A stretch of DNA of 64,000 nucleotides from Candidatus Parcubacteria bacterium (GTDB taxonomy: Bacteria; Patescibacteriota; Patescibacteriia; Patescibacteriales; UBA12075): assembly GCA_963814275.1 (NCBI GenBank), contig CAWFCE010000001.1:387307-451306 (forward strand). The letters are read 5' to 3'. The notes beneath the pieces were generated by a model. That model was not told where the DNA came from. It searched no databases and saw only the letters and a program-made list of their open reading frames with translations. Below are positions 11,036 to 57,783 of this stretch, piece by piece. Position numbers and translations under genes: made by a program. Positions within the stretch are counted from its first letter, which is position 1, and each line of letters opens with the position of its first letter.

Positions 11036-11055
11036 CCTGCCTATCGGCAGGCAGG
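11036..11055. repeat. Variant copy of the dispersed 20-nt GC palindrome
   Basis: CCTGCCTATCGGCAGGCAGG, 27 nt upstream of the CBS gene ATG. Confidence 0.8.
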
Positions 11056-11082
11056 CGTAATTCGTAATTCGACATTTGAAAT

Positions 11083-19078: not shown

Positions 19079-19676
19079 TATTCCTCGGGGCTCTGCCCCG
19101 GGGTTTCCTTCAGGAGGGAAAGTTTGAAAACCGTAGGTTTTCAAGAGGTTGATTAACAGCTAAACTATGTATATATGGATAAAGATGATAAACATATATA
19201 CAAAAGGCACAGCAAGACATTGCTACTCTACCACATAGTTTTTCCTGTAAAATATCGACGCTCTATTCTAACTCCTGAAGTTGAAAATTCATTGAAAGAT
19301 ATTTGTCTGGAAATTGGAATTTGCTATGAAATGAATTTTGTAGAAATCGGAGCCGACGAAAATCACGTACACTATTTAGTCCAGGGAATTCCAAGCATGT
19401 CGGTTTCAGAAATGGTGAAAACGATCAAAAGCATAACTGGAAAAGGGCTATTCAAGAAGCATCCGGAAATCAGGAAAATATTGTGGGGTGGAAATCTTTG
19501 GACATCAGGTTTTTATGCAAACACGGTCGGACAATACGGTAATGAAAAGATGATTAAGGAATATATCGAAAAACAGGGCGGAAGCTACAAAAAGATACAC
19601 GAAGGTCAGCTAAAACTGTTTGATTAACAAAAACATCGGAACATCCCCGATACCTCGGGGCTCTGCCCCGGGGTAA
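19079..19676 (+). mobile_element. IS200/IS605-family insertion sequence
   Basis: A Y1 transposase gene is flanked on both sides by the same motif CCTCGGGGCTCTGCCCCGGGG (19083-19103 and 19652-19672), which forms a GGGGC/GCCCC hairpin. Confidence 0.8.
19175..19627 (+). CDS. tnpA: IS200/IS605 family transposase TnpA (HUH Y1)
   Basis: 150 aa. Contains LLLYHIVFPVKYRR, HVHYLVQ (HUH) and GFYANTVGQYG (catalytic Tyr region). Confidence 0.9.
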   Translation: MDKDDKHIYKRHSKTLLLYHIVFPVKYRRSILTPEVENSLKDICLEIGICYEMNFVEIGADENHVHYLVQGIPSMSVSEMVKTIKSITGKGLFKKHPEIRKILWGGNLWTSGFYANTVGQYGNEKMIKEYIEKQGGSYKKIHEGQLKLFD

Positions 19677-19718: not shown

Positions 19719-19743
19719 TATTCTATTATGAGTAATATATCCG

Positions 19744-19827
19744 TGCCCAGGGAGGGAATCGAACCCTCATGAGATTACTCCCACACGATTTTGAGTCGTG
19801 CGCGTCTACCAATTCCGCCACCTGGGC
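19744..19827 (-). tRNA. tRNA-Leu(CAA), intact, class II
   Basis: The reverse complement folds by hand into a cloverleaf. Acceptor stem GCCCAGG/CCTGGGC. The D region GGCGGAATTGGTAGACGCG matches my recollection of E. coli tRNA-Leu. Anticodon loop CTCAAAA, long variable arm, T arm GAGGG-TTCGATT-CCCTC. No CCA is encoded. Confidence 0.9.
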
Positions 19828-20066
19828 TAATGTATAGATTTAATATATTCTCTGCCGCAGCCCGATTTTAAAAATATTTCTCTTTTTCTTGCTTCGGCTC
19901 TTGATGAATATTTTTCAACTATTAAAGTTGTAAAAGGTCTATATGGTTTAGTAGTTTTATTATAGCCATAATTATGTTGTTTTATTCTTCTTGCCGGGTT
20001 ATCAGAAATGCCGATGTAAATGTAATTAAGTTTTAAGCTTTTAATAGCGTATACAAAGTAATCCAT
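19827..20066 (-). CDS. GIY-YIG nuclease family protein (79 aa, URI/COG2827-like), copy 1
   Basis: Contains YFVYAIKS...NYIYIGISDNPARRIKQHN...SRAEARKREIFLK. The TAG stop shares one nucleotide with G1 of the intact tRNA-Leu. Confidence 0.85.
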   Translation of the reverse strand: MDYFVYAIKSLKLNYIYIGISDNPARRIKQHNYGYNKTTKPYRPFTTLIVEKYSSRAEARKREIFLKSGCGREYIKSIH

Positions 20067-20130
20067 GTCGATTTTGAGCCTGCCTGCCGGCAGGCAGGTC
20101 GTGCGCGTCTACCAATTCCGCCACCTGGGC
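20067..20130 (-). other. tRNA-Leu 5' fragment disrupted by the 20-nt palindrome (copy 1)
   Basis: It is identical to tRNA-Leu from nt 1 to the end of the 5' anticodon-stem strand. CCTGCCTGCCGGCAGGCAGG (20079-20098) follows, then CTCAAAATCG, then AC plus the ORF ATG. Confidence 0.9.
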
Positions 20131-20369
20131 TAATGTATAGATTTAATATATTCTCTGCCGCAGCCCGATTTTAAAAATATTTCCCTTTTTCTTGCTTCGG
20201 CTCTTGATGAATATTTTTCAACTATTAAAGTTGTAAAAGGTCTATATGGTTTAGTAGTTTTATTATAGCCATAATTATGTTGTTTTATTCTTCTTGCCGG
20301 GTTATCAGAAATGCCGATGTAAATGTAATTAAGTTTTAAGCTTTTAATAGCGTATACAAAGTAATCCAT
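20130..20369 (-). CDS. GIY-YIG nuclease family protein, copy 2
   Basis: Its protein is identical to copy 1. There is one synonymous nucleotide difference (20184 c versus 19881 t). Confidence 0.85.
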   Translation of the reverse strand: MDYFVYAIKSLKLNYIYIGISDNPARRIKQHNYGYNKTTKPYRPFTTLIVEKYSSRAEARKREIFLKSGCGREYIKSIH

Positions 20370-20433
20370 GTCGATTTTGAGCCTGCCTGCCGGCAGGCAG
20401 GTCGTGCGCGTCTACCAATTCCGCCACCTGGGC
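20370..20433 (-). other. tRNA-Leu 5' fragment disrupted by the 20-nt palindrome (copy 2)
   Basis: Same structure as 20067-20130, with the palindrome at 20382-20401. Confidence 0.9.
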
Positions 20434-20749
20434 CTTTTAAATTTCGAATTGCGATTTTCGATTTACGAATTATTTTTGTCTTAATTTGGTATACAAATAT
20501 TAGCAAAAAAATAAATAACTGCTATCTATCGCAGTTAATTACTGTAGAAATTATAAGGGAAAAATTAAAAAAAGTCAAAATTTGCCAAAACAAGCCGATT
20601 ACGTTATAATAAAGCAGATGAATTGTTGTATGGACAGTAATGAATATAAAAAGGGAATGTGGTTTGCTGCGATTATTCACGGCTGGCATCGTAGTGATAA
20701 ATAACAGCAAATTGGAGCAAAAATTAATTAAGATCTCCGATTCACAAAT

Positions 20750-21514: not shown

Positions 21515-21641
21515 TTCTACACAGATATAATTAACAAAAAGATACAAGAAACAAGTTACAAGATACAAAAGTTTATTACGGATTTAATTTTTCGATATTT
21601 TTGTGTCTTGTATCTTGTATCTTGGTAATTAAAGCAAATAT

Positions 21642-22514
21642 ATGGCAAACACAGGTTTGGGCAGGGGGCTGGGTTCCCTGATCCCCAATAAGAATAATCC
21701 GCCGGCGGCCAGCGCTGGCAAGCCGGCGGCCAGCACAGCCGAAGATACCGGCAAGGGGGTCATGCAACTGGCCATAGACAAGATAGCCGCCAACCCCCGC
21801 CAACCGCGCACAGATTTCAACGAATTGGCTTTGAACGAATTGGCCGCTTCGATCAAGGATTATGGCGTCATCCAGCCGCTGATAGTCAATCCGAAAGGCA
21901 GTGGGTATGAACTGATCGCCGGCGAAAGGCGCTTGCGGGCGAGCAAGATCGCCGGGCTCAAGACCGTACCGGCGATCGTCAGGAAGACCGACGAACAGGA
22001 AAAGCTGGAACTGGCCCTGATCGAGAATATCCAGCGGGAAGACCTGGACGTGATCGAGCTGGCGCATGCCTACCGGAAGCTGATCGATGAGTTCGGCCTG
22101 GGCCAGGAAGACGTGGCCAAACGCGTGGGCAAGAGCCGTCCCTCAGTAACCAATATTTTACGTATGCTCAGTCTGCCCGAAGAGGTCCAGCTGGCCCTGA
22201 AAGAAGGGAAGATCACGGAAGGCCATGCCAAATACCTGGCAGGGATCGAGGGCGAAGAACGCCAGATGAACCTGTTCCGCAAGATCGTCCATAACCAGTT
22301 GACCGTAGTGGATACCGGCCGCGAATCGCGGCGCATGGGCGGCACCAAGAATGCCCGGATCAAGATCAATTACCAGGATAAGGACAAGGAATTCGCCCTG
22401 CGGGAATTCTTCGGCACCCGGGTGGAGGTCAAACGCAAAGGCAAGGGCGGCCAGATCATCATCGAATTCTTCAGCGAGGACGAACTTCTGGGGATTGTGG
22501 GGAAAGTGAAGTGA
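21642..22514 (+). CDS. parB: Chromosome partitioning protein ParB/Spo0J
   Basis: Contains GLGRGLGSLIP, NPRQPR, LIAGERRLRAS and an HTH region. Confidence 0.95.
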   Translation: MANTGLGRGLGSLIPNKNNPPAASAGKPAASTAEDTGKGVMQLAIDKIAANPRQPRTDFNELALNELAASIKDYGVIQPLIVNPKGSGYELIAGERRLRASKIAGLKTVPAIVRKTDEQEKLELALIENIQREDLDVIELAHAYRKLIDEFGLGQEDVAKRVGKSRPSVTNILRMLSLPEEVQLALKEGKITEGHAKYLAGIEGEERQMNLFRKIVHNQLTVVDTGRESRRMGGTKNARIKINYQDKDKEFALREFFGTRVEVKRKGKGGQIIIEFFSEDELLGIVGKVK

Positions 22515-22572
22515 GGTCGGGGAGTGGGGATCGTGAATCGGGGAGCAGGGAGCGTGAATTTGGGTTCGGAGA
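22515..22572 (+). repeat. G/A-rich post-stop word motif
   Basis: GGTCGGGGAGTGGGGATCGTGAATCGGGGAGCAGGGAGCGTGAAT sits directly after the parB stop. Confidence 0.6.
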
Positions 22573-22753
22573 TTATTGGTTGTTTTGATTTTTATATCAC
22601 AATATATAATTCTAATTACCCCGCCAACATCGGTGGGGTATTAATATATATATAACGATTTACGATTTGTATACTCAGAAATTACTGTTTGACACATATC
22701 ATTTTATATGATATAATAATTTTTTAAATTAAAAAGCTGGAATATACACAAAG

Positions 22754-23023
22754 ATGTCCCAAGAAAAAATCGTCCACTATTTTAAAAAAGTCATGTTATT
22801 TTGGATCGGCGCCTGTTTGGTGGTGATCGGCTTAGTGGGAATTATCGTGCCGATCCTGCCGGGTATCATTCCGATCATATTCGGCGCCGGGCTGATCGCC
22901 CGCAGCCAGGAGAGCTTCGAGGAATATCTGATCAAACGGAAATTCCAAGCGATCAAGTCGCGCCTTTCCTTTGACCGCCCGCGCGTAAACCGTGCGGTAT
23001 ATGCGGGAATCAAAGAAAAATAA
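22754..23023 (+). CDS. Hypothetical small membrane protein
   Basis: 89 aa with two hydrophobic helices. Preceded by TTGACA-17-TATAAT at about 22699-22727. Confidence 0.45.
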   Translation: MSQEKIVHYFKKVMLFWIGACLVVIGLVGIIVPILPGIIPIIFGAGLIARSQESFEEYLIKRKFQAIKSRLSFDRPRVNRAVYAGIKEK

Positions 23024-23128
23024 TAATAATTTTTTTTATACATAAAAAACAGCCCCGCTATCGCGGAGCCGTTTTATTTTGTAGACTATTGCATTGAGGA
23101 TTGGAACTCTTTTGCTGAGGAAATCCAT

Positions 23129-23170
23129 AAAATAAAAAACCTATTGTCGACATAAATCAACAATAGGTTT
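23129..23170 (-). terminator. Intrinsic terminator downstream of the HIT gene
   Basis: Minus strand: AACCTATTG-N14-CAATAGGTT, followed by TTTTTTATTTT. Confidence 0.65.
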
Positions 23171-23195
23171 GACTGGGAATAACTCCGAAATAAAA

Positions 23196-23595
23196 TTAAG
23201 AAAATTCTTTTTTAAGTTCTGATAAGAAATCTTCACTAATTTCCGGTCGCTTCCCACCTTTCTTTAGAGGTGTTAAGGGACTACTGGAAAAAACAAGATG
23301 GACATGAACATGCTTGGTGTGCGGTCCGGGATGAAGAACGCAACTCTGCTACGGCTGGGCCATAGCCCTTTTCAAGGTAGAACTCCTGAACTTTTCTTAC
23401 AGCTATCATAAAAATACAATATTCCATTTCGCTCATCTCAGAAATGGATTCGTAATGATTTTTGGGTGCCACCAAAATATGAAGTGGCTTTTTGCAATTT
23501 TCATCAAGATCTGGAAACAGACTTGTATAAACATTATTTTTATACATTGAACCCAAAAAACATTTCCCTGCCTCACATAAAAAACACTCCATCAC
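23196..23595 (-). pseudogene. HIT-family hydrolase with an apparent frameshift
   Basis: Frame A (23281-23595) carries CFLCE and HILVAPKNH but ends before the histidine triad. The triad HVHVHLV and the remaining 50 codons are in another frame (23196-23348). The terminator follows the second frame. Confidence 0.55.
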
Positions 23596-23721
23596 AAATC
23601 CTCCTTTTGTTTTTTTATCTGCTTATTATAAATTTAAAAGATTTTTTATACTAACATTTTTTTCTTACAATGTCAACCATAAAAACAAAAAATCACCTAA
23701 AATTAGGTGATTTTTATGCCG

Positions 23722-23793
23722 TAGCCCATAGGGGAATCGAACCCCTGTTTCATGGATGAGAACCATGCGTCCTAACCATTAGACGAATGGGCC
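23722..23793 (-). tRNA. tRNA-Glu(CUC), intact
   Basis: The reverse complement is GGCCCAT-TC-GTCT-AATGGTTA-GGAC-G-CATGG-TTCTCAT-CCATG-AAAC-AGGGG-TTCGATT-CCCCT-ATGGGCT-A. Its layout parallels E. coli tRNA-Glu as I recall it. It has a G1-U72 wobble pair. Confidence 0.85.
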
Positions 23794-24147
23794 ATATTGA
23801 TTAAATTTATCAAATAAGAAATTTATATTTCATAAAATATGATTTTGCGAATAATTTTATTTGACGAAGGGAATCGCCATGTCATCCGACATGGCGCCCC
23901 GTCGGATGACGGGGCGAACCCCTGTTTCATGGATGAGAACCATGCGTCCTAACCATTAGACGAATGGGCCATATTGATTAAATTTATCAAATAAGAAATT
24001 TATATTTCATAAAATATGATTTTGCGAATAATTTTATTTGACGAAGGGAATCGCCATGTCATCCGACATGGCGCCCCGTCGGATGACGGGGCGAACCCCT
24101 GTTTCATGGATGAGAACCATGCGTCCTAACCATTAGACGAATGGGCC
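23794..24147 (-). repeat. Two head-to-tail 177-bp units (tRNA-Glu nt 1-56 + 40-nt double hairpin + ATTCCC + 75-nt AT-rich tail)
   Basis: 23794-23970 and 23971-24147 look identical by eye. The hairpin inserts are at 23875-23914 and 24052-24091. Confidence 0.9.
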
Positions 24148-24464
24148 AGTAAAATGACGAATGACGAATTACGAATGACGAATTATTTTATGATAATTGT
24201 GAAAAAATTATATCAATATGAATTAATCTAGATTATAATATAGATTAAAATATTTCAATATTCCAGTTATCTGTTGTCTGCTATCTGTTATCTTTCGTCA
24301 TTTAATATCAGTAGTTATTGTAAAATATAATAATAACTTAGTCAATCGCACTGTTTTTCCACAAAATTATAAACAGAACTGTACACATTTTTTGTGCATT
24401 AACCCACATTATAGGCACTTAGGAGGGGTATTGACAAAATCTGCAATTGTTCTATAGTTTAGTG

Positions 24465-29828: not shown

Positions 29829-29901
29829 AGGGCAGATTGCGAATTACGAATGTCGAATGTCGAATATATTCGTCATTCGTAATTCGTCGTTCGACACTTG
29901 T

Positions 29902-36525: not shown

Positions 36526-39500
36526 ATGATGTTTTTTAACCGTTTTTTAACCAACCGTAAACGCGCATTTATCATTATGCTTATGGCGGTGTTATCCATA
36601 ACTGTTTTGCCTCAGGTAAGTTTAGCGGAAGGATATGATTTTGACGCCGCGACATATTCGGTTGCCCCCGATCAGGACTTTACCGTGGGCGTAATTTTAA
36701 CGGATATGCAAAATGTTAATGGTATTGGCTTTGACCTGGTATTTGACCCTGCCGTAATATCTTTTGTATCGATGGATGTTGATGATTTATTTACTGATAC
36801 CGGTACTTGCCCTTATTTTCCCGCCGCCAGCGAAATAGCATCCGGAACGGTTGCCGTGGCGATAGCACGTTTGTGCGCAACCGGGGTAAGCGGCACTGGT
36901 GAAGTGGCGGTTTTTCATATGCATTCCAGCACAACACCGGGCAGCACTGCAGTTGACTTCAGCGGCCAAGTTATGGTGTGTTATCCTGATACATCCTGCA
37001 ACTACCTGGTTACCACGGATTCAGCTACCGTTAATGTCGTATCGCAGGATACCACCGCGCCGACCCTGGCTCAGGTCGCCCCGGTCCCAAGTCCGACCAA
37101 TGATACCACACCCAGTTATACTTTTTCCTCGAGTGAAGCGGGAATTATCAGTTATGGCGGCGATTGTTCTTCGGTCACGACCGATGCTATCGCCGGTGAT
37201 AATAATATTACCTTTGAAACTCTTTCCGCGGGTGTCCACAATAATTGCACTATCAGTGTTACTGATGCGGCCAACAACCAAAGTTCAGTTTTAAATGTCG
37301 GTTCATTTACGATCGACACATCTGCGCCGACCCTGGCCCAGGTAACGGCAGTGCCCAGTCCGACCAATGACACTACGCCGAATTATACTTTTTCCTCGAG
37401 TGAAGCCGGTACGATCTCATATGGTAACTGCCAGTCGGGTACTACGAATGCCGTAGCCGGCAGCAATACAATCACTTTTAATACTCTTTCCGCCGGAACC
37501 CATTCCAACTGTACGATTAGAGTAACTGATGCCGCCGGCAACCAAAGCTCGGTATTGTCTGTCAACTCATTCACGATCGACACCACCGCGCCGACCCTGG
37601 CTCAGGTCACCCCGGTTCCCAGCCCGACCAAGGATAATACCCCGGATTATACTTTTTCCTCGAGTGAAGCCGGTACGATCGTATATGGCAATTGCCAGTC
37701 GGGTACTACGAATGCTGTAGCCGGCAGCAATACAATCACTTACAATACTCTTTCCGCCGGAACCCATTCCAACTGTACCATCCGGGTGACCGATACAGCC
37801 GGCAACCAGAGCTCAGCATTGAGCGTAAACACTTTTACGATTGATACTACCAAGCCGGTAATCACAGTAACGGGCGCCAATCCGGTATCGATTAACAAAG
37901 GTCAGATATATTCTGATGCCGGCGCAACCGCCAGCGATAATTATGACGGCAATCTGACCGGTTCGATCGCAACCGGCGGTTCGGTCAATACTGATTTGGT
38001 TGGTGATTATACTATTTCCTATAATGTCAGCGATAGCTCAGGTAACACAGCTGACCAAAAGACACGTTTAGTCCATGTGGTCGATGGGGCCAAGCCGGTT
38101 ATTACCCGTCTGGGCTCAAATCCGGTCAATGCAGAGGCTAAAACTTCATACACCGATGCTGGTGCCACGGCCAGCGATGATGTCGATGGGGATATTACCG
38201 GTAATATTATAACGACCAATCCGGTAAATATAAATTTACTCGGCAATTATACCGTGCGATATAACGTATCCGATACCGCCGGCAATCCGGCTGACGAAGT
38301 TACCCGAACGGTGCAAGTGGTCGATACGACCAAGCCGGTTATTGCTTTGAACGGCGACAATCCAATGACGGTCGCTTACGGCAGTTCATACGTCGAACCA
38401 GGAGCCAGTGCCAGCGATAATTACGACGGTGATCTGACCGGTTCGATCGTTATTGGCGGTGATACGGTTGACGAGAACACTTCCGGTACATATAACGTGA
38501 CATATAACGTCATGGATACCTCAGGAAATTCGGCCGCTCAGGTTACGCGTGAAGTTACAGTGGGTAATCCTACTCCGGAAATTAATTTCGATCAGACGGA
38601 CTATCCGACAGATATAGCGACGAGCGTAGATGTCAGCTTGATTTTGGGTAGCGCGACAGATGTCGCGGGCGTTGGTTTTAATTTGAATTATGATACTGCG
38701 TTTTTGCGTTATCTTGGTTATACGGAAGGGGATTTTATTGGCACTGGTACCTGTTTTGGCCTGTCACTGGTTGATGAAACCGCCTCCGGTACGATTAGTG
38801 TATCTCTTAACCGTTTTTGCGGTACCGGCGTAACCGGTTCGGCCGGTCTTTTATCGCTAGAATTCCTGGCCAGCACATCGCCCGGAACGAGTGATTTGAC
38901 CCTTGGCCAGGCGGAAGTCAGTTATCCTGATACGAGCATCGGGACAGTTTTGGCGGATAGCGCCACTGTTACCGTGTCCTTGCCGGATACGACCGCGCCA
39001 GTCCGCTCGGGCGGCGCTCCGTCCGGCGAGTTGGCTGCCGGAACGACCCAGACGACATTGCAATTAACGACCAATGAGATCGCCGAGTGCCGCTATTCGA
39101 CCACGGCCAATACCGCCTTCGATACTATGACCGCTCTATTTACCAATACCAATTCCACTGCCCACTCTAAAACCATAAGCGGTTTGGGCAACGGCAATAG
39201 TTATAAATATTATATTCGCTGCCAGGACGGCAATGGTAACGCCAATTCTGACGATTACGCGGTCTCATTCTCCGTCAAATCCGCTTCATCCGGCGGCGGC
39301 GGTGGCGGCGGTGGCGGCGGCGGGGGATCATCCGGCGGAAGCAGCGGGGGAGGAACTTCCAGCGGGGGAGGAGGCACTACAGCTTCAGCCCCACCGGTAG
39401 TGACCGGAGCGTCATTAACCAAACAGGGAAAACAAATCACCATAAACTGGACCAACCCGGCCAGCGGATTGTACTCCAATATTATAATCATCCGTACCAC

Positions 39501-42392: not shown

Positions 42393-42407
42393 AATAGTAG
42401 GCGTAGT

Positions 42408-42495
42408 GTAGGCTTGTAGGCTTGTAGGCTTGTAGGCTTGTAGGCTTGTAGGCTTGTAGGCTTGTAGGCTTGTAGGCTTGTAGGCTTGTAGGCTT
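42408..42495 (+). repeat. Perfect tandem octamer (GTAGGCTT) x 11 in the lexA leader
   Basis: Counted by hand from 42408 to 42495. Degenerate copies flank it (GTAGGCGTAGT upstream, GTAGGCGGTAGGCGG downstream). Confidence 0.95.
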
Positions 42496-42561
42496 GTAGG
42501 CGGTAGGCGGTTTATTAATTTTATACTTAATACTTAATACTAAATACTAAATACTAATCAC

Positions 42562-47763: not shown

Positions 47764-47783
47764 CCTGCCTGCCGGCAGGCAGG
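47764..47783. repeat. Exact copy of the dispersed 20-nt GC palindrome
   Basis: CCTGCCTGCCGGCAGGCAGG lies at the centre of an AT-rich spacer, 31 nt upstream of the permease ATG. Confidence 0.9.
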
Positions 47784-53083: not shown

Positions 53084-54168
53084 ACTTAGTTTCTAGAATT
53101 TAACGCAACACTATTATTAATTAGCTCATTGAATACTTGATAGGGTTTTCTGAATCCCAATGCCGCCCGGGGGCGTCCATTAAGCAAGTCCTGCACTTTT
53201 TTCACTTCATATCTGGATACTTTGTTGAAATCGGTTCCTTTGGGGAAAAATTGTCTGATCAGGCCGTTGGTGTTTTCGTTGGTGCCCCGCTCCCAAGGGC
53301 TTCTCGGATGGGCAAAATATACTTTGACGCCGGTGATGCCGGTAAACAGCTTGTGCTTGGCCATTTCCCGCCCTTGGTCGTAGGTCAGCGTCAGTTTCAT
53401 CTGCTGGGGCAGTTTTTTCACTTCCTTGGCGAAGGCTTTGGCCACCACTTCGGCGTCTTTGCTTTTGACCGGGATGAGGATAGTCGTGCGGGTCGTGCGC
53501 TCCACCAGGGTGCCAAGAGCCGAGCGATTGTACTTGCCAATGATCAGATCGCCCTCCCAGTGACCGGGGATGATCCTGTATTCAACCTCTTTCGGCCGCT
53601 CTTCGATTGAGAGCATATCCTCTATTTTCCGCTCCATTTTGACGCCCCGGGCTTGTTTATACCGCCTTTTATGGTTACGGCGCAAGCAGGCAGTCAGCTC
53701 TTTTTTAAGCGAACCCCTGGGTAACACGTAAATGTAGGTATAGATCGCTTCGGGCGATATATGCATAGTCATATCTAGAGGATAATCTATTTCCAGCTCT
53801 TCGGCAATCTGGCGGGGCGACCATTTCTTTTTCAGTTTCTTTCTGATATACGTCCACAGCTTCGGATTGTCGTTCAGTTTATGCTTGCCGGATTTCCTTT
53901 TAGCGGCATTCCGCCTGGCCCGATTCTGCGCCCTAACGGCCCGATAGGTATATTTATTGCCGCCACCAGCGTTGATTTCCCGACTGATGGTACTGACGTT
54001 CCTGCCCAAGATACCGGCAATCTGACGGAAAGAGCATTTTTGCGAGAGTAAACGACTGATTTCCTCCCGCTCTAAATCGCTTAATCTTTTAAAATTTGAC
54101 ATAGGAATCTAACATAGCATTATTGGCGCTTCGCGCCAAATATGTTGCGTTAAATTCTAGTCTCAAAC
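53084..54168 (-). mobile_element. IS30-family insertion sequence, copy 1 (1085 bp)
   Basis: Bounded by identity with copy 2. Terminal inverted repeats contain CTAGAATTTAACGCAAC at both ends. Confidence 0.85.
53086..54102 (-). CDS. IS30 family transposase
   Basis: 338 aa with an HTH (SFRQIAGILGRNVSTISREI) and a DDE core (IPGHWEGDLI). It has Tyr where copy 2 has Asp (EVEYR versus EVEDR). Confidence 0.9.
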   Translation of the reverse strand: MSNFKRLSDLEREEISRLLSQKCSFRQIAGILGRNVSTISREINAGGGNKYTYRAVRAQNRARRNAAKRKSGKHKLNDNPKLWTYIRKKLKKKWSPRQIAEELEIDYPLDMTMHISPEAIYTYIYVLPRGSLKKELTACLRRNHKRRYKQARGVKMERKIEDMLSIEERPKEVEYRIIPGHWEGDLIIGKYNRSALGTLVERTTRTTILIPVKSKDAEVVAKAFAKEVKKLPQQMKLTLTYDQGREMAKHKLFTGITGVKVYFAHPRSPWERGTNENTNGLIRQFFPKGTDFNKVSRYEVKKVQDLLNGRPRAALGFRKPYQVFNELINNSVALNSRN

Positions 54169-56698: not shown

Positions 56699-57783
56699 AC
56701 TTAGTTTCTAGAATTTAACGCAACACTATTATTAATTAGCTCATTGAATACTTGATAGGGTTTTCTGAATCCCAATGCCGCCCGGGGGCGTCCATTAAGC
56801 AAGTCCTGCACTTTTTTCACTTCATATCTGGATACTTTGTTGAAATCGGTTCCTTTGGGGAAAAATTGTCTGATCAGGCCGTTGGTGTTTTCGTTGGTGC
56901 CCCGCTCCCAAGGGCTTCTCGGATGGGCAAAATATACTTTGACGCCGGTGATGCCGGTAAACAGCTTGTGCTTGGCCATTTCCCGCCCTTGGTCGTAGGT
57001 CAGCGTCAGTTTCATCTGCTGGGGCAGTTTTTTCACTTCCTTGGCGAAGGCTTTGGCCACCACTTCGGCGTCTTTGCTTTTGACCGGGATGAGGATAGTC
57101 GTGCGGGTCGTGCGCTCCACCAGGGTGCCAAGAGCCGAGCGATTGTACTTGCCAATGATCAGATCGCCCTCCCAGTGACCGGGGATGATCCTGTCTTCAA
57201 CCTCTTTCGGCCGCTCTTCGATTGAGAGCATATCCTCTATTTTCCGCTCCATTTTGACGCCCCGGGCTTGTTTATACCGCCTTTTATGGTTACGGCGCAA
57301 GCAGGCAGTCAGCTCTTTTTTAAGCGAACCCCTGGGTAACACGTAAATGTAGGTATAGATCGCTTCGGGCGATATATGCATAGTCATATCTAGAGGATAA
57401 TCTATTTCCAGCTCTTCGGCAATCTGGCGGGGCGACCATTTCTTTTTCAGTTTCTTTCTGATATACGTCCACAGCTTCGGATTGTCGTTCAGTTTATGCT
57501 TGCCGGATTTCCTTTTAGCGGCATTCCGCCTGGCCCGATTCTGCGCCCTAACGGCCCGATAGGTATATTTATTGCCGCCACCAGCGTTGATTTCCCGACT
57601 GATGGTACTGACGTTCCTGCCCAAGATACCGGCAATCTGACGGAAAGAGCATTTTTGCGAGAGTAAACGACTGATTTCCTCCCGCTCTAAATCGCTTAAT
57701 CTTTTAAAATTTGACATAGGAATCTAACATAGCATTATTGGCGCTTCGCGCCAAATATGTTGCGTTAAATTCTAGTCTCAAAC
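56699..57783 (-). mobile_element. IS30-family insertion sequence, copy 2 (1085 bp)
   Basis: Same length and orientation as copy 1. One difference seen: 57195 c versus 53580 a. Confidence 0.85.
56701..57717 (-). CDS. IS30 family transposase
   Basis: 338 aa, differing from copy 1 at one residue. Confidence 0.9.
   Translation of the reverse strand: MSNFKRLSDLEREEISRLLSQKCSFRQIAGILGRNVSTISREINAGGGNKYTYRAVRAQNRARRNAAKRKSGKHKLNDNPKLWTYIRKKLKKKWSPRQIAEELEIDYPLDMTMHISPEAIYTYIYVLPRGSLKKELTACLRRNHKRRYKQARGVKMERKIEDMLSIEERPKEVEDRIIPGHWEGDLIIGKYNRSALGTLVERTTRTTILIPVKSKDAEVVAKAFAKEVKKLPQQMKLTLTYDQGREMAKHKLFTGITGVKVYFAHPRSPWERGTNENTNGLIRQFFPKGTDFNKVSRYEVKKVQDLLNGRPRAALGFRKPYQVFNELINNSVALNSRN

Follow-up and report, generated by a model that had tools for sequence, protein, structure and literature searches.

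Among described systems, a phage endonuclease and a group of mitochondrial hairpin elements come closest to the locus studied here. The T4 GIY-YIG enzyme SegB cuts within the tRNA gene cluster of the phage (PMC2330249), and it is reported to drive segmental amplification of the tRNA region (PMC13096335). Mitochondrial hairpin elements include the double-hairpin elements of Allomyces, the GC clusters of yeast and the GC palindromes that flank Neurospora mitochondrial tRNA genes (PMC2800124). We analysed a 64,000-nt stretch of a Candidatus Parcubacteria genome (contig CAWFCE010000001.1, positions 387,307 to 451,306; hereafter the window), in which a tRNA-Glu(CUC) gene is preceded by two tandem copies of its own 5' part, each interrupted in the T-loop by a 40-nt double hairpin element (DHE). 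The window also holds a similarly built array at a tRNA-Leu gene. A survey of tRNA introns in Patescibacteria describes group I introns at position 35/36, and mentions neither GIY-YIG genes nor DHE-type hairpins (PMC13011429).

We consider it likely, on balance, that the tRNA-Glu array is a tandemly duplicated member of a family of tRNA-targeting, homing-type cassettes from which the open reading frame (ORF) has been deleted. It has the hairpin and the insertion point of this family and lacks the ORF, and is in this sense a degenerate member.

Anatomy of the tRNA-Glu array

An earlier note, made from the sequence alone, had described an intact tRNA-Glu(CUC) gene preceded by two identical 177-bp units, which was confirmed by ARAGORN, Rfam and Tandem Repeats Finder (TRF, 100% matches). 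The features of the locus are as follows.

23721-23793 (ARAGORN) or 23722-23793 (Rfam), minus strand: intact tRNA-Glu(CUC), the functional copy after the two units (RF00005, 64.1 bits)
23688-23715, minus strand: terminator-like hairpin and T-run directly after tRNA-Glu (consensus scan and sequence reading)
23794-23970, minus strand: unit 2, tRNA-proximal, 177 bp (TRF and sequence reading)
23971-24147, minus strand: unit 1, distal, 177 bp, its tRNA part abutting the original upstream flank of the gene
24092-24147 (unit 1) and 23915-23970 (unit 2), minus strand: copy of tRNA-Glu nt 1-56, ending at GGTTCG of the T-loop
24052-24091 (unit 1) and 23875-23914 (unit 2), minus strand: 40-nt DHE
24046-24051 (unit 1) and 23869-23874 (unit 2), minus strand: ATTCCC stub, the resumed T-loop and T-stem
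23971-24045 (unit 1) and 23794-23868 (unit 2), minus strand: 75-nt AT-rich cargo
24317-24345, minus strand: promoter-like site about 170 nt upstream of unit 1, a consensus match in a scan whose count is not above that of shuffles

The tandem repeat runs from 23738 to 24148 with a period of 177, 2.3 copies, 100% matches and zero indels. Reading of the sequence bore out the composition that the note had given for each unit, namely tRNA nt 1-56, a 40-nt insert, ATTCCC and 75 nt that end exactly at G1 of the next tRNA copy; nt 1-56 of the intact tRNA-Glu are identical to the tRNA part of the units. The DHE, CCCCGTCATCCGACGGGGCGCCATGTCGGATGACATGGCG, is composed of CCCCGTC-ATCC-GACGGGG-CG and CCATGTC-GGAT-GACATGG-CG, and is inserted between G57 and A58 of the T-loop, which in the intact gene reads TTCG-ATTCCCC, continuous across the insertion point. 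The hairpin cores, GTCATCCGAC and GTCGGATGAC, are mutual reverse complements, as had been observed in the note. Each hairpin has only two sites in the window, against a chance expectation of 0-0.07, and no DHE hairpin was found in the window beyond the two array copies. A dispersed family like that of repetitive extragenic palindromes and their associated transposases (REP/RAYT) was rejected as a description of the DHE, since its modules lie only in the array within the window.

The 177-bp unit folds far better than shuffles both as DNA (z = -5.1) and as RNA (z = -4.5), the RNA fold being a stable three-way junction. No promoter-like site was found inside the units by the consensus scan, suggesting that the array and tRNA-Glu are probably one transcript. 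With the DHE removed in silico, the array of the window yielded no tRNA and none of 66 instances a convincing complete one, indicating that the DHE is not an intron in a functional gene. We also rejected a group I intron and an archaeal bulge-helix-bulge intron, as the 3' acceptor strand is missing after the insert and no Rfam intron family is present.

The 75-nt cargo contains ATG AAA TAT AAA TTT CTT ATT TGA and an in-frame TAA 7 nt before G1; a GIY-YIG ORF is absent from it, and comparison of the cargo with all fetched loci (blastn-short) gave low-complexity matches only.

AT-rich heptamer repeats (AATTCGT, CATTCGT, AATGACG) were noted at 24153-24183, 29840-29893, 11056-11080 and 20440-20475. 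Both tRNA arrays, as well as other genes, have such repeats upstream, and those at 29840-29893 form a long palindrome.

Recurrence and conservation of the double hairpin element

The note had proposed that similar structures be sought at other tRNA loci, and hundreds were found in other genomes. We scanned metagenome contigs with a pattern made of GGTTCG and a generalised first hairpin (GGTTCGCCNNGTCNNNNGACNNGGCG), which matched at least 120 stretches. The variable stem positions were complementary in 75 of the 129 matches listed, the unpaired ones being chance matches in GC-rich coding DNA. Viral contigs, which serve as a specificity control for the pattern, gave 8 matches, all of them unpaired chance matches in GC-rich coding DNA. 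Among the matches listed, at least about 60 are real DHE loci.

The consensus of these loci is GGTTCG / CCnnGTC-ATNC-GACnnGG-CG / yCnnGTC-GNAT-GACnnGG-CG / A(A/T/G)TCC. The DHE of the window fits it exactly, and aligns without gaps to 46 other instances. In the second hairpin, which lay outside the search pattern, both members of all 7 pairs vary and pairing holds in 98.8% of cells; with the structure taken as a whole, the observed score was reached by 0 of 500 shuffles, and slid controls were 21-46% paired. The stems of the DHE are thus maintained by compensatory changes. Pairing of the two 10-nt cores, or kissing of their loops, was rejected as a conserved feature, since in other loci the two loops are often non-complementary (ATCC/GAAT, ATAC/GGAT).

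The DHE may also be described as a pair of oppositely oriented 18-nt hairpin modules, each with CG after it. The number of 20-nt modules differs in some loci (2, 3 or 4 occur in a row, in alternating orientation), nested modules are also seen, and the same dinucleotide flanks the modules in 112 of 120 cases, mostly CG, with TG in 3 nested cases.

Assembly support

The host of the array is a bacterial chromosome from a lineage of Patescibacteria, with fmt, def, parB and dnaE; its nearest sequenced relatives have Fmt proteins at most 58% identical. An independent Logan contig (L205, run ERR11571143) matches the window at 21640-23767 and stops about 29 nt beyond the T-loop junction. As this is where the assembly graph would be expected to branch at a true repeat, the end point indicates that the element is real, and exactly two copies is an assembly value.

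An assembly artefact, or an ordinary duplication by slipped strands or unequal crossover, might be suspected from the 100% identity of the units, which leaves reads unassignable to a copy, from the presence of about two copies in both arrays, and from the breaking of short-read contigs at this point. We regard such an origin as highly improbable. The anatomy, the insertion point and the hairpin consensus recur in at least about 60 independent metagenome loci and also in metagenome-assembled genomes, the Logan contig ends as a true repeat predicts, and one synonymous base separates the two units of the tRNA-Leu array. Copy number alone could be artefactual, but not the element itself.

A HIT-family gene lies downstream of tRNA-Glu (23281-23595). 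Its ORF has 104 aa in the window and 131 aa in the Logan contig, which differs from the window by a 1-nt indel. The window thus has either a frameshift here or an error of assembly.

Targets, layouts and nuclease genes of the family

Nearly every DHE among the matches listed has an intact tRNA gene adjoining it on the same strand, and across the at least about 60 loci the DHE always separates TTCG from the A that follows it in the T-loop of a partial tRNA copy. The tRNAs concerned are of at least 15 identities (Ser, Gly, Val, Leu, Arg, Gln, Asn, Lys, Asp, Thr, Glu, Ile, Pro, Tyr, Ala and others).

We identified two layouts. In layout a, which is that of the window, the order is tRNA 5' part, DHE, stub, short spacer, ORF or short cargo, and intact tRNA; the upstream tRNA copy is long, often the whole 5' part, and 4-8 nt of tRNA resume after the DHE. 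In layout b an intact tRNA is followed by the ORF, GGTTCG, the DHE and the tRNA 3' part. Here the ATG of the ORF often overlaps the tRNA 3' end, 6-11 nt of tRNA precede the DHE, and the whole 16-18-nt 3' part follows it in about half of the loci.

A same-strand GIY-YIG ORF was identified in 23 of the 66 DHE loci listed, mostly within about 100 nt of the DHE. Full-length relatives of the window array carry a GIY-YIG gene of about 85 aa between the fragment and the intact tRNA, at the place of the 75-nt cargo, so that the non-autonomous derivative envisaged in the note is a fair description of the Glu units. The proteins share the pattern ...YKGxTxDLKRRxxEHxxGKVxSTKxxRPxxLIHYEAYLLKSDAxRREKFLKTTEGRRLLKQQ... 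and form a clade of more than 400 sequence clusters, of which the named ones are mostly from Patescibacteria. Look-ups that started from the protein, on long contigs, found layout a with a DHE in 3 of 3 cases (P0257 and P0283 at tRNA-Ser, P0310 at tRNA-Arg); the DHE of P0310, CCCCATCATCCGATAGGGCG CCATGTCGGATTACATGGCG, is nearly the same as that of the window. In 11 of the 13 cases that allowed the comparison, a DHE-clade ORF and its nearest relative share their tRNA type; there are subclades for Ser, Gly, Gln and Arg, and the exceptions suggest occasional target switching.

The DHE-clade proteins match the structures 1ywl and 1zg2, which belong to UPF0213. Proteins of this family are the bacterial Slx1-like 'minimal' GIY-YIG domains of Dunin-Horkawicz et al. 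(PMC1564403). NCBIfam has no family model for this clade or for the GIY-YIG clade of the tRNA-Leu array.

A few DHEs have GGTTCG/AATCC flanks and no ARAGORN tRNA nearby (L106 at about 8262, L156 at about 9708, also L155, L123 and L170). These may be fragments of tmRNA or of other genes that contain a T-arm, or orphan fragments.

Some of this evidence could be read at the level of RNA. The fragment, the ORF and the tRNA would then form one transcript, in which the GC double hairpin would shield the nuclease mRNA at the end left unprotected by the tRNA, or would be a processing site, and its position in the T-loop would be incidental. The DHE always lies on the side of the ORF away from the intact tRNA (5' in layout a, 3' in layout b), the overlap of the ATG with the tRNA 3' end in layout b suggests that tRNA processing makes an mRNA end, and the missing promoter-like sites, the stable three-way junction and the covarying stems are all consistent with such a role. 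It leaves unexplained, however, why the insertion falls exactly at 57/58 and why the hairpin is retained in ORF-less arrays, and the presence of the same architecture on both strands, in the form of opposed modules, points to recognition at the DNA level. We consider an RNA-level role improbable.

Loss of the nuclease gene and tandem arrays in relatives

Forms without an ORF, and tandem forms, are common in the DHE family. At two loci (L085 and L176) tRNA-Ser and the DHE are separated by a 45-nt spacer that represents the 3' end of the ORF of a third (L189; 42 of 48 positions identical), which shows that units without an ORF result from its deletion. At tRNA-Asn, the ORFs of L101, L130 and L194 are frameshifted.

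Tandem arrays were identified in L157, L159, L163, L171 and L140. The array of L157 (1385-1735) has five 70-nt units that follow an intact tRNA-Asp, each made of a spacer, GGTTCG, the DHE and the tRNA-Asp 3' part. Copy number also appears to vary among close relatives, as one Giovannonibacteria genome (L216), whose sequence has scaffold gaps, has two units and five near-identical relatives (L217-L221) have one. We withdrew L216 as proof of an ORF-less unit, since its N-runs are scaffold gaps of arbitrary length.

L157 also holds a GIY-YIG gene resembling that of the tRNA-Leu array, with 20-nt palindromes, at a tRNA-Met gene.

The tRNA-Leu array and its family

The tRNA-Leu array lies 3.9 kb from the tRNA-Glu gene and has the following features.

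19743-19827, minus strand: intact tRNA-Leu(CAA) (ARAGORN and Rfam)
19828-20433, minus strand: two 303-bp units (TRF, period 303, 2.1 copies, 99%)
20079-20098 and 20382-20401, minus strand: 20-nt palindromes in the units
19827-20066 and 20130-20369, minus strand: 79-aa GIY-YIG ORFs in the units

Each unit consists of tRNA nt 1-32, a perfect 20-nt palindrome (CCTGCCTGCCGGCAGGCAGG), CTCAAAATCG and the 79-aa ORF (Pfam GIY-YIG, 2e-15), whose TAG stop overlaps G1 of the next tRNA-Leu copy; the ORFs of the two units differ by one synonymous change. The common construction that the note had seen in the two arrays was upheld, both having a partial tRNA, a GC hairpin in a tRNA loop, resumed tRNA nucleotides, cargo and an intact tRNA.

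The 79-aa protein has more than 130 close homologues, and we took 80 loci of this Leu-type family from reference genomes, the counts that follow being over 83 loci. In 75 of the 83 the ORF immediately adjoins a same-strand tRNA-Leu gene, whatever its anticodon, and most of these tRNA-Leu-adjacent loci have a partial tRNA-Leu copy on the other side of the ORF. These copies are usually 100% identical to the local tRNA, and the 20-nt palindrome or a close variant of it interrupts them, in some cases as two or three tandem copies; the sites are the D-loop, position 24, the anticodon loop, the variable region and the T-arm. Among 64 recorded palindrome insertions, 51 have a length of 19-21 nt. In an alignment of Leu-type proteins only, the Tyr, Arg, His and Glu positions that we take for the catalytic residues of GIY-YIG enzymes are conserved. 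Hosts span at least 6 phyla (Patescibacteria, Bacteroidota, Ignavibacteriota, Nitrospirota, Planctomycetota, Omnitrophota).

Solo palindromes of the Leu type, one exact and one with 2 mismatches, were noted at 47764-47783 and 11036-11055. They lie in AT-rich intergenic DNA with flanks of AATTCG-type heptamers, outside recognisable tRNA fragments.

The hairpin type tracks the nuclease clade. The 20-nt palindrome occurs 94 times, in 64 of the 83 Leu-type loci, versus 7 times in 120 DHE loci (732 kb), and no DHE modules were found in the 83 Leu-type loci. The note had suggested that the GIY-YIG cassette of the window could be the autonomous partner of the Glu units. This was not supported and is probably wrong: that cassette belongs to the Leu clade, with its preference for tRNA-Leu and its own palindrome, and the DHE has its own GIY-YIG clade, which is 37% identical to the Leu type and has no member in the window. 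Thus, the Leu cassette is not the obvious autonomous partner.

The behaviour of the hairpins across both families underlies the main rival explanation, in which the 18-20-nt modules are themselves mobile units that home into the loops of tRNA genes, at T-loop position 57/58 for the DHE. They would be seen only in redundant partial copies because insertion into a single-copy tRNA would be lethal, and the GIY-YIG cassettes would merely make the partial copies or supply nuclease in trans. The modules come in multiples of 20 nt, two, three or four in a row, in alternating orientation and sometimes nested; the Leu palindrome occurs at many tRNA positions with flanks about 100% identical to the local tRNA, which implies repeated local insertion; and the solo palindromes at 47764 and 11036 lie in intergenic DNA of the window. 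The recurrent flanking dinucleotide would fit the 2-nt staggered cuts of GIY-YIG enzymes (PMC2330249), and mitochondrial hairpin elements behave similarly (PMC2800124). However, CG is self-complementary and may merely extend the stems, there is no flanking duplication at the Leu palindrome, the DHE is undispersed in the window, with its two array copies only, and regular stubs of 4-11 nt beside the ORF fit an architecture at the level of the cassette better than random colonisation of fragments. This explanation is compatible with homing of the cassette, and we hold it to be possible though doubtful.

A stronger form of it, taken as a whole, seems to us rather unlikely. The 18-20-nt hairpins would then be the smallest known mobile DNA units, inserted into tRNA-gene loops by a minimal, structure-specific, Slx1-like GIY-YIG enzyme with a 2-nt staggered cut, the hairpin would be specific to the nuclease clade (the 20-nt palindrome at tRNA-Leu, the double hairpin in T-loops), and nuclease, hairpin and portable tRNA arms together would make up a new class of two-component bacterial mobile elements.

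Neighbouring transposase and integration at tRNA genes

An element of the IS200/IS605 type was identified at 19085-19675, between a TPR protein gene and the terminator of tRNA-Leu. It carries a Y1 transposase gene (19175-19627; Pfam Y1_Tnp, 7e-34) and a CCTCGGGGCTCTGCCCCGGGG hairpin on both sides.

As tRNA genes are classic integration sites, and as this TnpA gene with its GC hairpin flanks is only 4 kb away, the units might be thought an att remnant of an integrase-type element, or to stem from a REP- or IS200-type hairpin moved by the neighbouring Y1 transposase. Both are extremely improbable. The neighbourhood contains no integrase, the gene between fragment and tRNA in the relatives is a GIY-YIG gene and never an integrase, the duplicated part of the tRNA is the 5' one with only about 120 nt of inserted DNA, and the CCTCGGGGCTCTGCCCCGGGG hairpins are unrelated to the DHE.

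A proposed homing-type mechanism and the evidence against it

Under the cassette reading that we favour, the element would spread in the manner of free-standing homing-endonuclease genes. Where the cognate tRNA gene of a naive genome underwent a break or recombination event, repair would draw on the occupied allele, and the intact tRNA together with the partial copy would act as portable homology arms; the tRNA would serve in this way because it is the only DNA common to unrelated genomes. The tRNA would remain functional because the cassette would bring a new 5' part in layout a and a new 3' part in layout b; the displaced resident part would be left as the fragment. The hairpin would plug the presumed target site, because a break in the T-loop of the fragment, between the direct repeats, would lead through single-strand annealing to loss of the cassette, whereas one in the intact tRNA gene would fall outside the direct repeats. 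It might also be the structure that the nuclease binds or cleaves, since Slx1-type enzymes are structure-specific (background in PMC1564403). Out-of-register recombination, or repair of breaks between fragment and intact tRNA, would add units and produce tandem copies. At the tRNA-Glu locus the nuclease gene would have been lost, with 75 nt left behind, and further movement would need nuclease in trans. A role of the hairpin as a poison against deletion between the direct repeats was rejected for layout a, as a clean tRNA results from a crossover at any point in nt 1-56.

Several points weigh against this reading. We infer the loss of the nuclease ORF at the tRNA-Glu locus from position; the cargo resembles GIY-YIG N-termini weakly (about p = 0.04, with 6 of 164 AT-rich controls scoring as high), and the 64-kb window contains no nuclease gene of the DHE clade. 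We did not find an empty allele for the source genome, whose closest relative has an Fmt protein 58% identical, and the extra unit of the Giovannonibacteria genome is partly unreadable across scaffold gaps. For the DHE cassettes in general, nuclease activity and its cut site are predictions from sequence, as are homing and the part played by the hairpin. The intact adjoining tRNA keeps an unaltered T-loop, so that an enzyme that cut there would also cut the host gene and every other tRNA gene, unless its specificity lay elsewhere. Finally, a simple plug need not be a conserved, covarying and strand-symmetric double hairpin, and the conservation of the hairpin suggests a further function beyond that of a plug.

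If the cassette reading is true, Patescibacteria carry common, unannotated genome parasites that live on tRNA genes without destroying them, and the tRNA-Leu type adds Bacteroidota, Ignavibacteriota and others to their hosts. This would be the first biological context for the bacterial Slx1-like GIY-YIG proteins of UPF0213, for which there are solved structures and, to our knowledge, no known function. It would also explain many assembly breaks at tRNA genes, and many tRNA 'pseudogenes', in ultra-small bacteria. The cassettes offer a testable system for target choice by a nuclease of about 80 residues, possibly via DNA structure; their exact, conserved hairpin insertions in tRNA loops are easy markers for finding them, and the nucleases may be of interest as compact structure- or sequence-specific enzymes.

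Other repeats in the window

An IS30-like element (HTH_38 and rve core, 338 aa) is present at 53086-54102 and 56701-57717, the copies being 99.9% identical over 1085 nt, with the hairpin TTGGCGCTTCGCGCCAA after each. Intergenic DNA at 42407-42501 contains a perfect 8-nt tandem repeat, TGTAGGCT (11.9 copies, 100% matches). Tandem repeats of 264 nt (2.2 copies, 83% matches) lie at 37252-37822, within the gene of a 1270-aa surface protein with bacterial Ig-like domains.

Comparison with known systems

In the literature searched, which was mostly outside subscription journals, we found no account of GIY-YIG genes that have beside them partial tRNA copies interrupted by hairpins. The two widespread sister families of tRNA-gene cassettes thus appear to be undescribed.

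Like elements with tyrosine integrases, the cassettes target tRNA genes, often at the T-loop, with an element-borne copy that restores the tRNA and a fragment that forms a direct repeat. Unlike them, they have no integrase, measure 70-400 bp and not kilobases, duplicate either the 5' or the 3' part, and carry a hairpin at the junction. With REP/RAYT and IS200/IS605-derived elements they share short GC-rich hairpins and a small dedicated nuclease as the presumed driver; the driver is however of the GIY-YIG and not the HUH Y1 type, and the hairpins are confined to tRNA fragments and not dispersed extragenically. Set beside miniature inverted-repeat transposable elements, which are defined by terminal inverted repeats and a target-site duplication, the modules show identical dinucleotide flanks in those 112 of 120 cases, mostly the self-complementary CG.

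Mitochondrial hairpin elements are likewise short, GC-rich, single or double hairpins in AT-rich genomes, non-coding and apparently mobile, and are often found beside tRNA genes or in dispensable parts of genes. They differ from the DHE in belonging to unrelated sequence families, whereas the DHE has bacterial hosts, an exact insertion point at T-loop 57/58, a tie to a nuclease clade and an invariable place in a partial tRNA duplicate. Mobile endonuclease ORFs of fungal mitochondria, such as the GIY-YIG insertion in Allomyces atp6, bring a copy of the end of the host gene, and likewise replace the displaced part, so that the essential gene stays intact and the old part is left as a fragment. 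These differ from the cassettes in having a protein-coding target, an in-frame fusion, no loop hairpin and another nuclease architecture.

The likeness to the free-standing GIY-YIG homing endonuclease genes of T4-like phages, above all SegB of T4, lies in a small GIY-YIG gene between or beside tRNA genes and in selfish spread through break-induced gene conversion, which for the DHE cassettes we infer. The tandem amplification reported after SegB breaks (PMC13096335) parallels the tandem units found here. The DHE proteins differ from the Seg enzymes and I-TevI in being minimal and Slx1-like (UPF0213), of about 80 aa and without a DNA-binding domain. Their hosts are bacterial chromosomes, with none in viral contigs, and their nuclease activity is a predicted one. 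Unlike SegB, moreover, the DHE cassette carries with it a partial duplicate of its target tRNA and a conserved hairpin in the tRNA loop.

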